From sequence record PV730300.1: 64,000 nt of DNA. One strand, written 5' to 3'. Shown in pieces: positions 11,309 through 25,895 of the stretch. The notes beneath the pieces are model-generated. The model was not told the origin of the DNA and did no database searches. It saw nothing but the letters and a program-made list of their open reading frames with translations. Made by a program: the position numbers and the translations under genes. Source of the stretch: a phage. The first letter of the stretch is position 1. The number at the start of each line of letters is the position of its first letter.

Positions 11309-12268
11309 TTAGATTCCAATAATAGTTGCTGCTCGTTTATCCTTGGATCTGGTGTTTGCTCTACTACGTGACAAACCTCCACAAGATTCACAACGAATGA
11401 TATCGAAAGAACTTACCGCAGTGTGGTATTGCTTACCAGTAACAACGTGAACATGATCACTTCCGCAACGAGAACAACGGACTTTCTCATCTGGGTAATA
11501 AGCGGATAAGTTAGGATGTTGTGGAATCCACGGAAGGATTTTCATATACAAATCACGGAGTGAAACAACATCACCATCGTTGTAAATCTGCATACGTTCA
11601 AAAGCATCACGATCACCTTCACAACATGCTTTCCATAAAGGGAACCCCTCGTTATCCAGTTTTTCACTCTCTGTTTCGAAATATGCTCCCATTTCTTTAA
11701 GGGAGTTGGAAGGAAGTGCAAATTGTTTCTTAGCTGCCTTCAATGTATCAACAACTACATAATTAGAAGGAGGAGCCATATCGTGATATGCAAATCGTTG
11801 GTTAATGTATGCACGGTCAAACTTATACCCGTTGTGTGCCACAACTACATCTGCCTCATTCAGAAGGTTCCAAAGATCTTGGCAAAGCTCCCAATCATCT
11901 GTATGATCAATATCAAAAAGAGGATAAGAAGACAAATTCTTACCTTCCACTTCACCAGTATACAGATCAGCAGAAGAATAAGATAACAAATAACCTCTGC
12001 GAATTACCTGGTCTGGAGAAATGAAGGCTTTGAATCGACGGAAAGTATATGCAATCTCTGGTGCAGTTTCAACATCAATAATTTTAATAACTGGTTGTTT
12101 CTTTTTAACGGGTTCTTGTTTACTTCCACTGAAACGTGCAAGGAAATCATTTACTGTGCTTTTTCTTGTTGGGCTACCTAAAACAATTGCTGCAATATTG
12201 CGAGAAGACATACCCTCTGCACTCATACTAAGGATATCTGCTTTCTGCTCTTCTGTTAATCTGCTCAC
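11309..12268 (-). CDS. putative nuclease (RNase H-fold exonuclease-like) with C-terminal zinc ribbon
   Basis: IDVET acidic motif; C-terminal CSRCG...CESCGG. Confidence 0.4.
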   Translation of the reverse strand: MSRLTEEQKADILSMSAEGMSSRNIAAIVLGSPTRKSTVNDFLARFSGSKQEPVKKKQPVIKIIDVETAPEIAYTFRRFKAFISPDQVIRRGYLLSYSSADLYTGEVEGKNLSSYPLFDIDHTDDWELCQDLWNLLNEADVVVAHNGYKFDRAYINQRFAYHDMAPPSNYVVVDTLKAAKKQFALPSNSLKEMGAYFETESEKLDNEGFPLWKACCEGDRDAFERMQIYNDGDVVSLRDLYMKILPWIPQHPNLSAYYPDEKVRCSRCGSDHVHVVTGKQYHTAVSSFDIIRCESCGGLSRSRANTRSKDKRAATIIGI

Positions 12269-13383
12269 TCTGCCTCCTGTTGTGAGATGTATGACTGAAG
12301 CATACTCTCAAATGTTGTATCGTCATTATCCCAGCGTTTCATGTATACCAACTGGAAAATTGTTTCTATCCATTCATCTGTTGTCATATGGACTTCTTCT
12401 CCATCCCAAGAAGTAAAATTAACACCATCTGGGAACCACGAGTAGTAAGTATCTTTAACTGTTTGGAAAAGCTCTGCTTGAGTTTTACAAGCTGAAAGAA
12501 GATTAAAACAAGTAATATCTCCAAACTTAATATCAAAATCTTGATAAGGTCGAATACTATCTGTTTTATCTCCCATTAGCATCTGATATGCTAACCAGTA
12601 ACTGCCCCAACCTTTAACTTCTTTCTTTTTACCTTTATCTACGATCCATATATCGCCAATAGACTCGTCAATAAGAATTATATCTGGATTTTTAAATACT
12701 CCATCCTCTTTGTAGAAATTAAAAAGGATACTAGGAGTATGTAAACTATCTTTATCTATAGACACTACGATATAAGAAAATTTACCCGTCCTTTTATAAT
12801 CTTTATAACCTTGGAAACCATACTTCTCTAACTCATCATCGGCTTCTATTACAGTAACAACATCACCATTGTGGAACTCCACAAGATAATCTTTGGTTTC
12901 TGAAAGCTGAAGTGGTTTGATATCTAATCGTTCAGATTTATATTCTACAGGCATTTTGAAGGCGTGTCTGAAAGTTTTTCCTACGCCAATAACTCCGCAA
13001 TATTTTTCTAAACGTAGATGTTTTAGAATACCTAAGACTTTTGTTTTAGCTGCTTGGAAGGTGTGTCCGATATCTTCTGGCGGGTATTGCTTATCAATGA
13101 TTTCGAACTCTTCCTTTGTGAAGGGACGTTTGTTTTTGGAGGCTCTTTCTGCATTTGTATCTCCTAGCCAACCTCCAATTTTAGTCTTGCTTTTACCCCA
13201 AAACTCTGTCTTATTTTTAAATTCCTTTTGAGCACCTGAAGGGATGTGCTTCGCAATGATTGTTCTTTTCTCTAATGCAGATGCTGCTTGGAAAGCGATC
13301 TGATCATAATCAATTGCAGCTATTGTTTCTTCGTTGACATATAAATGAAGATCTTCAGGTTTAATTAAAATATAACCGCTAAT
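12265..13383 (-). CDS. hypothetical protein; frame is open well upstream of the listed ATG (12954), start uncertain
   Basis: Same frame runs without a stop from 13395 to 12954 with protein-like translation (contains GVIGVGKT just upstream of the ATG); no ATG/GTG/TTG in that stretch; candidate ATT start at 13383 after a GGGGGA ribosome-binding site. Confidence 0.35.
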   Translation of the reverse strand: MSGYILIKPEDLHLYVNEETIAAIDYDQIAFQAASALEKRTIIAKHIPSGAQKEFKNKTEFWGKSKTKIGGWLGDTNAERASKNKRPFTKEEFEIIDKQYPPEDIGHTFQAAKTKVLGILKHLRLEKYCGVIGVGKTFRHAFKMPVEYKSERLDIKPLQLSETKDYLVEFHNGDVVTVIEADDELEKYGFQGYKDYKRTGKFSYIVVSIDKDSLHTPSILFNFYKEDGVFKNPDIILIDESIGDIWIVDKGKKKEVKGWGSYWLAYQMLMGDKTDSIRPYQDFDIKFGDITCFNLLSACKTQAELFQTVKDTYYSWFPDGVNFTSWDGEEVHMTTDEWIETIFQLVYMKRWDNDDTTFESMLQSYISQQEAE

Positions 13384-13395
13384 ATTTCCCCCTAA

Positions 13396-13605
13396 TTATT
13401 CATCGTCATCCTCTGTTGAGAATGTTTTAGTATACGGACATTGACGACTTTTCGGGATTGCTATAACTTCATCTTGGTTAGCGTTAGAATAGTAGCAATA
13501 TTTTGTATTGCCATTAACTTCAGAATCAGACAAGATTAAAGTAATTTGACCTGCTGCTACTGTGAAACTAAAAGCTAAAAGAACGACTGTCAGAATCTTT
13601 TTCAT
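13396..13605 (-). CDS. small secreted protein (N-terminal signal peptide)
   Basis: MKKILTVVLLAFSFTVAAGQ signal-peptide-like N-terminus; AGGAGG ribosome-binding site. Confidence 0.4.
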   Translation of the reverse strand: MKKILTVVLLAFSFTVAAGQITLILSDSEVNGNTKYCYYSNANQDEVIAIPKSRQCPYTKTFSTEDDDE

Positions 13606-13611
13606 AACGCC

Positions 13612-13641
13612 TCCTAAAAAGCCTACCTCATTAAGTAGGTA
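13612..13641 (-). terminator. intrinsic terminator (minus strand)
   Basis: GCCTACCT-loop-AGGTAGGC hairpin followed by a U-run on the minus-strand RNA. Confidence 0.55.
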
Positions 13642-13677
13642 GGCATAATATCATAACTAATCCCGCAAGTCAAGAAC

Positions 13678-23969: not shown

Positions 23970-24044
23970 GGCCCTGTAGCTCAATGGGAGAGCTGTCGGC
24001 TCATAACCGATAGGTAGCTGGATCGAAACCAGCCAGGGCCACCA
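23970..24044 (+). tRNA. tRNA-Met (anticodon CAT)
   Basis: Manual cloverleaf: acceptor GGCCCTG/CAGGGCC, anticodon loop CTCATAA, CCA encoded. Confidence 0.7.
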
Positions 24045-24046
24045 AC

Positions 24047-24121
24047 GTCTTTATGGTGTAATGGATAGCACAGGAGTCTTCTAAACTCTTAGTCAAGGTT
24101 CGATTCCTTGTAAAGACACCA
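24047..24121 (+). tRNA. tRNA-Arg (anticodon TCT)
   Basis: Acceptor GTCTTTA/TAAAGAC, anticodon loop CTTCTAA, T arm CAAGG-TTCGATT-CCTTG. Confidence 0.65.
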
Positions 24122-24122
24122 G

Positions 24123-24306
24123 AACATTTTAACATGAATTAGCTCAAGTGATTTGAACCCACTACTGATCATGGTGGCAGAGAATGAGGCAAGTATGTCA
24201 GACATTATAAACAAAGGCCACGGTTATATTAGAAGACATAAATGCTCGAAGAGCACCGTTCGTTGAGAACGGGGGTTGGTGGAGTCACCATTCATGGTAA
24301 AATGTT
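24123..24306 (+). ncRNA. candidate structured small RNA 2
   Basis: 16-nt terminal helix AACATTTTAACATGAA (24123-24138) / TTCATGGTAAAATGTT (24291-24306), 15 of 16 paired, enclosing several hairpins. Confidence 0.35.
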
Positions 24307-24317
24307 TTAAAAAACTA

Positions 24318-24347
24318 TTGACAACTAACATTATTTTATGTTAGATT
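24318..24347 (+). promoter_or_regulatory. sigma70-like promoter (internal to the tRNA cluster)
   Basis: AAACTATTGACA at 24318-24323, 17 nt, TGTTAGATT-type -10. Confidence 0.45.
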
Positions 24348-24355
24348 ATAAGTAT

Positions 24356-24446
24356 GGAAGGGCAAATCGACGTGGCGACGAAAACGGTCTTGAAAACCGC
24401 CGAGCTTGAAAGAGCCTTGGGAGTTCGACTCTCCCTCCTTCCGCCA
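24356..24446 (+). tRNA. tRNA-Ser (anticodon TGA), class II
   Basis: Acceptor GGAAGGG/TCCTTCC, anticodon loop CTTGAAA, long variable arm, CCA encoded. Confidence 0.7.
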
Positions 24447-24451
24447 GATTA

Positions 24452-24537
24452 GGTAGATTGGTGAAATGGTAGCCACGACAGTTTGCTAAACTGTAGTCGG
24501 AAACGGCGTGTAGGTTCGAGTCCTACATCTACCGCCA
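24452..24537 (+). tRNA. tRNA-Ser (anticodon GCT), class II
   Basis: Acceptor GGTAGAT/ATCTACC, anticodon loop TTGCTAA, long variable arm. Confidence 0.7.
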
Positions 24538-24667
24538 AGTTCTTTTTAATATAGCTTACTTTAATAGAGTAAACTTTCGGCAGATGGCCCCCACCATCTT
24601 ACCGATAACTCATAGTTAGTGGTGTGAACACTGGCTATTTTAAAAAGAATTTAAATATTAGTATTTA

Positions 24668-24755
24668 GGTGAGTTAATTCCGTAGGGGTAGCGGGGCAGA
24701 CTGTAAATCTGTTATCATTGCGATTCGGGTGGTTCGACTCCATCACTCACCACCA
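24668..24755 (+). tRNA. tRNA-Tyr (anticodon GTA), class II
   Basis: Acceptor GGTGAGT/ACTCACC, anticodon loop CTGTAAA. Confidence 0.7.
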
Positions 24756-24761
24756 AATTAA

Positions 24762-24847
24762 GATGAGTTGGCTGAATGGTTTAAGCGGCGGACTGTTAAT
24801 CCGTGTTCGAAAGAACGATATAGGTTCAAATCCTATACTCATCGCCA
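24762..24847 (+). tRNA. class II tRNA, isotype uncertain (anticodon loop reads CTGTTAA, i.e. GTT)
   Basis: Acceptor GATGAGT/ACTCATC, T arm ATAGG-TTCAAAT-CCTAT, about 15-nt variable arm; anticodon assignment ambiguous by hand. Confidence 0.45.
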
Positions 24848-24937
24848 GAATTATGGACTTGTAGAGTTAAGGTAAACCCCCAGTCGCCAAGAGGCTTCTG
24901 AAATTGCAGGTATCGAATCCTGCCGAGTCCCAGCTTT

Positions 24938-25012
24938 GCTCCTATAGTATAATGGCTATTACAACGGTTTTGTAATCCGTGGATCTCTGTTCGATTCAGA
25001 GTGGGAGCACCA
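24938..25012 (+). tRNA. tRNA-Thr (anticodon TGT)
   Basis: Acceptor GCTCCTA/TGGGAGC, anticodon loop TTTGTAA, T arm CTCTG-TTCGATT-CAGAG. Confidence 0.6.
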
Positions 25013-25287
25013 ACACAACATTAAGAGCACTGTGATTGATCGTCGTATCCTGTGCACAAGGTCTGTTCGAAAGACAGTGTTCTTAGTATTGTGTTGATCA
25101 CACAAAAAGAGTTACCTGAAACTTGACCGGAGTAGGGTTGGATGGGGCAAAAGAAGAAGCGGCTCTCCCATCGACAGCAACGAAGAATAATATTTGACTT
25201 TGGTTTTGTATTATTTTAAGTTAGCTTACCGAACGTAGGGCTAGTCACCCAATGGGATACTCGTCACTGTCCCACTCAATAAAACTA

Positions 25288-25317
25288 TTGACAACCAATA
25301 GTAAAATGTAGTATAGT
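25288..25317 (+). promoter_or_regulatory. sigma70-like promoter (internal to the tRNA cluster)
   Basis: AAACTATTGACA at 25288-25293, about 18 nt, TATAGT. Confidence 0.45.
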
Positions 25318-25328
25318 AAAGATGTAGG

Positions 25329-25403
25329 GCGTTCTTGGTGTAGCGGTAGCATTCCGTCCTTCCAAGTCGGCGGCACGAGTTCGATCCTCGTAGAACGCTC
25401 CAA
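25329..25403 (+). tRNA. tRNA-Gly (anticodon TCC)
   Basis: Acceptor GCGTTCT/AGAACGC, anticodon loop CTTCCAA, T arm ACGAG-TTCGATC-CTCGT. Confidence 0.7.
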
Positions 25404-25500
25404 ATTATTTAATAAAGGGTTGCCAGAAAACTTTCTCTTTTACTCATGGTTTTCTCCTTCTCTCACACCTCTTCTGGTTGCCCTTCATTAAATGATTTAT

Positions 25501-25576
25501 TGGTTTGTAGTGTAGTCCGGTAGCACACGACACTTTGACTGTCGTAGGTTTGGTTCAAATCCAGACAGACCAGCCA
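25501..25576 (+). tRNA. tRNA-Gln (anticodon TTG)
   Basis: Anticodon stem CGACA/TGTCG, loop CTTTGAC, T loop TTCAAAT. Confidence 0.7.
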
Positions 25577-25581
25577 TATAA

Positions 25582-25658
25582 CGGAATTTAGCTCAGTTTG
25601 GTAGAGCATACGCTTTGGGAGCGTAGGGTCGCAGGTTCGAATCCTGCAATTCCGACCA
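25582..25658 (+). tRNA. tRNA-Pro (anticodon TGG)
   Basis: Acceptor CGGAATT/AATTCCG, D stem GCTC/GAGC, anticodon loop TTTGGGA, T arm CGCAGG-TTCGAAT-CCTGC. Confidence 0.8.
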
Positions 25659-25664
25659 ATTTAA

Positions 25665-25738
25665 TGTTTCGTAGTTCAATGGTAGAACCCACGACTGATA
25701 ATCGTGAGACACAAGTTCGATTCTTGTCGAAACAACCA
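25665..25738 (+). tRNA. tRNA-Ile (anticodon GAT)
   Basis: Acceptor TGTTTCG/CGAAACA, anticodon stem CACGA/TCGTG, loop CTGATAA. Confidence 0.75.
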
Positions 25739-25740
25739 GT

Positions 25741-25810
25741 TTCCCGTTAGACTTACAGGATAAGAGTTCCACAGCTTATTGTGATGCTGGTTCGAATCCA
25801 GCACGGGATA
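25741..25810 (+). tRNA. putative tRNA, anticodon not assignable by hand
   Basis: Canonical T arm GCTGG-TTCGAAT-CCAGC and pairing acceptor ends, but no clean anticodon arm could be folded. Confidence 0.3.
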
Positions 25811-25816
25811 CCTAAT

Positions 25817-25895
25817 AGCGGGATAGAGGAGTCTGGTCGTCCTCGCCAGTTTCATATGCTGGAGATCATCGGTTCGAATCCGATTCCCGCCTCCA
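25817..25895 (+). tRNA. tRNA-Met (anticodon CAT), possibly initiator-like or Ile2-type
   Basis: Anticodon loop TTCATAT, T arm ATCGG-TTCGAAT-CCGAT, A1-C72 mismatch at the top of the acceptor stem. Confidence 0.6.

Follow-up and report, generated by a model that had tools for sequence, protein, structure and literature searches.

A conserved AUU codon as the probable start of a flap endonuclease-like exonuclease gene in phAPEC8-like phages

Where does translation of a gene begin when its reading frame stays open far upstream of the listed ATG and meets no canonical start codon on the way? The question is raised by a 64,000-nucleotide (nt) stretch of phage DNA from sequence record PV730300.1, the whole of which we call the window. 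On its minus strand, the frame of an exonuclease open reading frame (ORF) listed at 12265-12954 is open upstream to 13395, with 147 codons (13395-12955) before ATG 12954. An earlier note, made from the letters alone, had pointed out that this stretch contains no ATG, GTG, or TTG, and had offered three explanations: a non-canonical start codon, readthrough or recoding of the stop of the preceding gene, or decay of the exonuclease gene. The comparisons described here support the first. The segment 13383-12265 is one intact, conserved gene for a predicted 372-residue 5′-3′ exonuclease of the flap endonuclease (FEN) type, and its translation very probably starts at ATT 13383-13381, behind the Shine-Dalgarno sequence AGGGGGA.

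Translation of the 147 codons bears out the earlier description of the frame: they include 0 ATG, GTG, or TTG. The frame begins directly after TAA 13398-13396, the stop of a small signal-peptide gene lying in the same frame, and is then open for 376 codons to TGA 12267-12265. The junction reads, on the minus strand, TAA TTA GGG GGA AAT ATT AGC GGT TAT, and the GGGGGA that the note had taken for a ribosome-binding site (RBS) does lie at 13392-13387, ahead of ATT at 13383-13381. From base composition, 147 stop-free codons would arise by chance with a probability of ~5.5e-5. Given an in-frame frequency of ATG, GTG, and TTG of 4.8% in the window, their absence from 143-147 codons has a chance probability of ~7-9e-4; for the 143 N-terminal codons (12955-13383, minus), about 7 would be expected and none is present (chance ~8e-4). 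When all open frames of 100 codons or more on the window's coding strands were compared, the exonuclease frame was the sole real gene to reach its first canonical start only after more than 30 codons (at index 147).

It is tempting to see in this absence a selected feature. That idea was rejected, as relatives have 1-6 ATG, GTG, or TTG codons in the corresponding N-terminal part. The total lack of canonical codons in the window is thus, as far as the compared sequences indicate, lineage-specific, with no evident selection against internal starts. Its practical consequence is that gene callers, finding no in-frame ATG, GTG, or TTG in the N-terminal part, fall back in the window to an internal ATG (12952-12954), which is Met144 of the 372-residue protein.

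The upstream stretch matches the N-terminus of full-length relatives. This was seen when the extended translation was used for a homology search and orthologues were compared, as the earlier note had proposed. In a search that covered 5.8 billion proteins, homologues of 343-380 residues were found that cover 91-99% of the query, and those of 350-375 residues align end to end. A profile search matched the 376-residue translation to phrog_107 ("exonuclease") with E=9.9e-56 over residues 14-371. The 147-residue upstream part matches by itself at profile positions 110-185 (E=5e-7) and the 229-residue part at positions 191-378, so that the two are collinear. In an alignment of 24 sequences, the invariant residues are D29 and D31 of an IDYDQ motif (13314-13300, minus; aspartates at 13311-13309 and 13305-13303), E184, D186, D187, D214, D216, D276, and D279. 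These acidic residues are putative counterparts of the metal-binding catalytic residues of T5 D15.

An AlphaFold2 model, built with the homologue alignment as input, places the N-terminal part and the rest of the protein in one domain, with a mean predicted local distance difference test (pLDDT) score of 93.2 and a predicted template modelling (pTM) score of 0.86; pLDDT falls below 50 only for residues 1-4 (LGGN), which precede the ATT. When the model was compared with the Protein Data Bank (PDB) by Foldseek, the top 11 matches were all E. coli ExoIX or T5 D15 flap endonuclease (probability 0.97-1.0; E=5e-5 to 1e-3), with template modelling scores (TM-scores) of 0.38-0.59 when target-normalised and 0.40 when normalised by query length. 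Searches of the PDB with the protein sequence and with the family profile gave nothing meaningful, and the link to FEN enzymes therefore rests on the comparison of folds. Pfam PF02739 (5_3_exonuc_N) has no match in the window protein at E<=1; the DTP-pb9 and SH3_2 matches that Pfam does return are far under their cut-offs and were discarded as noise. A homologue at 50% identity (P0038) has a sub-threshold 5_3_exonuc_N match, of 26.6 bits vs a cut-off of 34.3. Aligned to the window protein, this match starts ~35-40 residues upstream of the internal Met, and for that reason a 229-residue product would begin inside the 5_3_exonuc_N-like domain. Pfam does not cover this divergent branch, to which the window exonuclease belongs.

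The N-terminal part also carries the mark of purifying selection. Compared with five relatives at 72-83% identity, it differs at 0.16-0.26 of non-synonymous vs 0.64-0.80 of synonymous sites; these are raw proportions, since synonymous sites are saturated and the ratio of the two substitution rates is not properly computable. No Shine-Dalgarno sequence precedes the internal ATG (2/5 core matches), and many homologues have Leu in place of the Met at 12954. The earlier note had envisaged orthologues that begin at the equivalent of this Met with unrelated sequence upstream; instead, the Met is not conserved and the N-terminal part is homologous. From these alignments we conclude that ATG 12954 is not a genuine start. 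According to the alignment and the model, a 229-residue product would be without the first aspartates and the first strands of the FEN core.

If the start lies upstream, which codon serves? AGGGGGA (13387-13393, minus) matches a GGAGG core at 4/5 positions, and the spacer between its GGAGG-aligned core and ATT 13381-13383 is 4 nt, which is the modal spacer, found in 26 of the 82 window genes with a recognisable Shine-Dalgarno sequence. ATT is the sole near-cognate codon between this element and the conserved sequence that begins SGYILI. It is thus the only plausible start that the sequence offers for the 372-codon gene (12265-13383), whose 142 codons after the ATT (12955-13380), with their phrog_107 match and their signs of selection, are absent from most public annotations. 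The predicted N-terminus would be (M)SGYILIKPEDLH..., i.e., (f)Met-SGYILIKPEDLHLYVNEETIAAIDYDQIAFQAASALEK.

A further argument for the ATT comes from its relatives. Codon alignments took in Phapecoctavirus, Justusliebigvirus, 15 IMG/VR loci, and 8 metagenome contigs (individual loci carry L numbers below), down to 48% identity, and all relatives examined at or above that identity have ATT, ATC, or ATA 4-5 nt 3′ of a Shine-Dalgarno sequence of the GGAGG or GGGGG type. The window junction TAA TTA GGG GGA AAT ATT AGC GGT TAT is shared with 53 identical records, and Justusliebigvirus reads TGA TGA ATA GGA GGT AAT ATT AGC GGT TAC. ATT is also found in L029 (GGA GGG AGT ATT), L030 (GGG GGA AAG ATT), L026 and L043 (both GGA GGA AAG ATT), L031 (TAG AGA GGG AAA ATT), L009 (TGA TTG GGA GGC ACC ATT), and seven IMG/VR loci at 65% identity (TAG GAG GAT GTT ATT). 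ATC takes its place in phiWec181 and L011 (GGG GGA ATT ATC AGC), L008 (TAG GAG GGT AAT ATC GGC), L014 (TAG GAG GAT AAC ATC), L015 (TAG GAG GAG TAA ATC GGT), and L028 (GGG GGA ACT ATC), and ATA does so in L045 (GGA GGT AGT ATA, 52% identity) and L027 (GGA GGA AAA ATA). The purine-rich motif appears as GGAGGT, GGAGGA, GAGGAG, or AGAGGG, and the residues that it would encode vary accordingly (GG, EG, ED, EE-stop, RG). It is the nucleotides that are kept and not the amino acids, as they would be in a Shine-Dalgarno sequence.

Several of these loci limit where translation can begin. In L015 and L037, an in-frame TAA stands directly 5′ of the ATC, and L031 has a TAG in frame 3 codons upstream of the ATT. 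Two Phapecoctavirus genomes, ETEC-TG (L022, OR786310.1) and PNJ1809-36 (L023, MT944117.1), have 6 G vs 5 in the run equivalent to 13388-13392, and in both a TAG directly precedes GGG GGA AAT ATT. Since a change of 1 nt in the length of the G-run is tolerated, translation must begin 3′ of it. The sixth G slightly alters the Shine-Dalgarno sequence as well, and it may be either a real polymorphism or a miscalled homopolymer. Between the upstream stop and the conserved sequence there is no ATG, GTG, or TTG in Justusliebigvirus, L008, L014, L015, L026-L031, or L038-L046; the exception is L009. In L026, L027, and L031, for which gene callers settled on an ATG further downstream, the peptide between the ATT or ATA and that ATG, I-T/N-x-x-F-K/N-T-I-S, is conserved between contigs, and this conservation argues that the stretch is translated.

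More distant relatives place the start at the same point by other means. At 40-43% identity, the Vequintavirinae phages CR3, phiTE, and CarlMeissner have a canonical start at the aligned position, followed by G-Y-P; CR3, for example, has ATG GGT TAT where the window has ATT AGC GGT TAT. In 22 IMG/VR loci of the same identity (L047-L069 range), the aligned codon is ATG in 7, GTG in 6, and TTG in 9, again with G-Y-P following. Taken together, the alignments indicate that an AUU, AUC, or AUA (AUH) start is ancient in this exonuclease lineage and has been maintained.

Some observations do weigh against this assignment of the start. One lineage, L009, has a TTG directly before the Shine-Dalgarno sequence, and another, L011/phiWec181, has a TTG 11 codons downstream; each is a canonical alternative in that lineage. 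ATT, ATC, and ATA are moreover all three Ile codons, so that a conserved "I" alone cannot separate a start from a sense codon, and it is for this reason that the argument rests on the upstream stops, the shifts of frame, and the Shine-Dalgarno geometry. Finally, a literature search found no proteomic, ribosome-profiling, or toeprint data on the N-terminus of the protein for any of these phages. As for a start still further upstream, we considered the equivalent of TTA 13395 on account of a homologue annotated as "MGGTIT..." (P0035). Its TTG has no upstream Shine-Dalgarno sequence and is followed by GGAGG-CACC-ATT, and the ATT fits better.

How, then, would ribosomes reach the AUU? We propose that AGGGGGA, 4 nt upstream, positions the ribosome at AUU 13383-13381 and that, as in infC and pcnB, initiator fMet-tRNA would decode the codon. 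The small ORF upstream (13396-13605, minus) encodes 69 residues with a signal peptide; it belongs to phrog_4641 and is a homologue of phi92 gp086, for which the phi92 record has a SignalP feature. Its stop lies only 12 nt before the ATT, and because of this proximity part of the initiation may come from ribosomes that re-initiate after terminating on the small ORF.

One could go further and suppose that such termination and re-initiation is obligate, AUU initiation depending mainly on it and not on independent recruitment of ribosomes. In nearly all relatives, whatever their upstream gene, a stop lies 9-12 nt before the ATT, ATC, or ATA or overlaps the Shine-Dalgarno sequence (TAGGAGG), and about half of the expression from an infC-like UAA-GGU-AUU junction was due to re-initiation (PMC3592434). 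Genes are tightly packed throughout this phage, however, so that proximity is not specific to the exonuclease; the strength and optimal spacing of the Shine-Dalgarno sequence suggest that ribosomes could initiate de novo; and no secondary structure sequesters the start site. Indeed, a search for RNA structure around the start that might act as a coupling switch found none beyond shuffled controls (z=0.05). Obligate coupling is in our judgement an unlikely but serious possibility, and it is a refinement of AUU initiation, not a contradiction of it.

Decay of the gene stands much lower. On this explanation the start has been lost, only a 229-residue C-terminal fragment from ATG 12954 or nothing at all is made, and the upstream stretch is a fossil. 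It is true that every record checked except that of phage ESCO13 annotates the short or an otherwise truncated form, and that ATT initiates poorly, at ~1-2% of AUG (bioRxiv 10.1101/063800). Yet the frame is intact over the 147 codons, with the small chance probability given above, in >120 genomes from two genera as well as in many metagenomic relatives. In the N-terminal part, synonymous sites are saturated while non-synonymous change is low, and D29 and D31 are invariant. The proposed fragment would begin at a non-conserved Met without a Shine-Dalgarno sequence and would lack the strands and aspartates with which the FEN core opens, and the fold of the full protein is predicted with confidence (pLDDT 93.2). 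The third explanation of the earlier note is thus set aside as very improbable, in view of the N-terminal homology, the purifying selection, and the invariant aspartates.

Its second explanation fares slightly worse still. Ribosomes would pass TAA 13398-13396 of the signal-peptide ORF and make a fusion with the exonuclease, as might be imagined from the fact that in the window, L008, L014, L015, L028, and L029 the two ORFs share a frame with a single stop between them, and from a protein cluster of 444 residues (P0005) that displays just such a fusion. The contig behind this cluster (L008), however, has a TAG where the protein has Q, and its DNA does not translate to the query; the fusion was rejected as evidence of readthrough, being the artefact of a gene caller that decoded TAG as Gln. 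In Justusliebigvirus, L011/phiWec181, ETEC-TG, and PNJ1809-36, the small ORF and the exonuclease occupy different frames, and L015 has two in-frame stops between the ORFs. Distant relatives with an ATT or ATA start have a different gene upstream, e.g., a methyltransferase in L026, and a signal peptide on a cytoplasmic DNA nuclease would be implausible. The differing frames and the extra stop of L015 leave readthrough with hardly any credibility. Apart from the question of the start, the P0005 cluster (L008, Logan SRR30397360 contig) has 48 member sequences, a family of artefactual fusions from alternative-code gene calling.

That a sequencing or assembly error at 13380-13400 hides a canonical ATG is the least probable of all, for although the G-run varies between 5 and 6 G among records in the manner of homopolymer miscalls, 53 phage genomes, each sequenced independently, agree at all 86 nt around the junction, and divergent lineages with different flanks have ATT, ATC, or ATA at this position.

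If initiation at the AUU is accepted, its most likely effect would be to keep synthesis of the nuclease low, and it may be sensitive to initiation factor 3 (IF3). AUA, AUC, and AUU reporters initiate at ~1-2% of AUG, with an N-terminal Met (bioRxiv 10.1101/063800); in another system AUU was six- to eight-fold below AUG, and at the infC-like junction UAA GGU AUU re-initiation and de novo initiation contributed about equally (PMC3592434). Non-canonical starts are inhibited by excess IF3 (PMC2268962). By analogy, we infer that the AUU of the exonuclease would initiate at a few percent of AUG efficiency and be discriminated against by IF3. The persistence of AUH to ~48% identity and the frequency with which the sister clade begins this gene at GTG or TTG (15 of 22 loci vs 21 of 82 window genes) suggest selection for low or conditional nuclease synthesis; the loci are not phylogenetically independent, and the comparison is therefore only suggestive.

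A bolder proposal is that the AUH start is a regulatory sensor. Translation of the exonuclease would then rise as the IF3:ribosome ratio falls in infection, through host shut-off or ribosome overload, or would depend on ribosomes arriving from the upstream ORF for the secreted protein. We regard this as speculative and rather improbable. If true, the start would be a translational timer for a potentially genome-damaging nuclease, and the GTG/TTG bias of the sister clade a milder form of the same selection. A special initiator tRNA supplied by the phage was also considered and rejected. The window has 10 tRNA genes at 23970-25895 (plus strand), namely Met(CAT) x2, Arg, Ser, Asn, Thr, Gly, Gln, Pro, and Ile(GAT), and by inspection none has an obvious initiator-type GGG/CCC anticodon stem. 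The first CAT tRNA of the cluster resembles E. coli tRNA-Ile2, which reads AUA after lysidine modification.

What do existing records make of this gene? The window belongs to Phapecoctavirus (phAPEC8-like, Stephanstirmvirinae): a 1.9-kb region is 95-99.4% identical to 65 phage records, and the 86 nt around the junction have 100% identity in 53. In phAPEC8, vB_Ec-G1, Ro121c4YLVW, and iGC_PHA_EC001, the annotation is the 229-residue product from the ATG only. The Justusliebigvirus records phi92, ESCO32, and SD2 start at a GTG just 3′ of the IDYDQ motif, and the phi92 record comments on that gene "No RBS identified; weak Prodigal statistics". A single record, that of ESCO13 (KX552041.2, AQM50955.1), already encodes the start: it lists a 372-residue "putative exonuclease" that begins exactly at the ATT corresponding to 13383, and it also marks an RBS. 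The genome announcement of ESCO13 is silent on the ATT and offers no evidence for it (PMC5374246), and our literature search found no described ATT start in these phages. In the remaining Phapecoctavirus and Justusliebigvirus records checked, the gene is truncated. The 229-residue "exonuclease" of most records is an annotation truncation, which arises because gene callers take only ATG, GTG, and TTG.

The present analysis goes beyond the ESCO13 annotation in offering comparative proof, in excluding readthrough and decay, in finding the AUU/AUC/AUA start to be lineage-wide, and in showing how far the misannotation extends. A truncated exonuclease, one without the first active-site aspartates or without the entire N-terminal third, is listed in at least 120 deposited genomes of therapeutic-candidate E. 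coli phages (Phapecoctavirus, Justusliebigvirus) and in many metagenomic gene calls, and some records fill the apparent gap with spurious small ORFs. Such truncation misleads function prediction, pangenome clustering, and structure prediction. In phAPEC8 and vB_Ec-G1, for instance, a 40-residue "hypothetical protein" (MQKEPPKTNV...) is annotated at window 13032-13154 (minus), out of frame within the N-terminal part of the exonuclease, and it is almost certainly spurious; in vB_Eco_PATM, an antisense coding sequence is annotated in the apparent gap.

Separately, records labelled Campylobacter phage B15, A145, and A110a, Acinetobacter phage vB_AbaM_ABPW7, Klebsiella phage ZCKP1, and Pseudomonas phage PsgM04F also match this region of E. 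coli Stephanstirmvirinae, A145, A110a, and PsgM04F at 80-84% over the 86-nt junction. Contamination, or claims of an unusually broad host range, may lie behind these host labels.

The surroundings of the gene deserve brief description. A consensus scan found a promoter-like site, TTGACT-17-TATTAT, at 13673-13645 (minus), sigma-70-like with 10/12 consensus matches and an extended -10 TG, just upstream of the Shine-Dalgarno sequence of the small ORF; judged by its sequence, it likely starts the transcription unit that carries the exonuclease. It is followed by a G+C-rich hairpin and T-run at 13644-13621 (the two elements together span 13621-13673), which could terminate transcription of an rdgC-like gene or form a stem-loop that stabilises the 5′ end of the new transcript. 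At the other end, GTGA at window 12265-12268 (minus) combines the exonuclease TGA with the GTG start of the following gene (11309-12268, an RNase_H_2-like "DNA polymerase exonuclease subunit"); some records (Ro121c4YLVW) start the RNase_H_2-like gene 42 nt further downstream.

How does this gene compare with systems already known? As an enzyme, the window protein shares its fold, by Foldseek, with T5 D15 and E. coli ExoIX (Pfam PF02739, phrog_107), and its clusters of invariant acidic residues may correspond to theirs, but it is only 10-13% identical to these solved structures and, with insertions, ~100 residues longer than either. The nearest counterpart of its start is AQM50955.1 of ESCO13 (KX552041.2), the same gene with identical flanking 86 nt, 372 residues, and the same ATT; there the start is a database annotation, unsupported in the announcement (PMC5374246). 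A comparable case outside these phages is ebpA of Enterococcus faecalis, in a different organism and a different protein, where a rare ATT start was likewise passed over in favour of an annotated downstream ATG (120 bp away in ebpA, 429 bp here), attenuates expression, and was verified experimentally (PMC4447247).

Confirmed starts other than ATG, GTG, and TTG are very rare in E. coli biology, and the confirmed AUU starts in E. coli are those of infC and pcnB only (bioRxiv 10.1101/063800). Like the window gene, both have an AUU behind a Shine-Dalgarno sequence and an unusual codon conserved among orthologues; in infC, the upstream cistron also stops a few nt before the AUU. For infC and pcnB, weak, IF3-discriminated initiation is known, whereas the window start is predicted from sequence comparison. 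The window gene differs further in encoding a phage nuclease and not a translation factor, in having no obvious autoregulatory loop, and in that its orthologues use all three codons, AUU, AUC, and AUA. Thus, the kind of mechanism is one already known from infC and pcnB, while the case is new and deeply conserved. With AUH kept to ~48% identity vs ATG, GTG, or TTG in the sister clade, it provides a clean natural case for asking why weak starts are selected.

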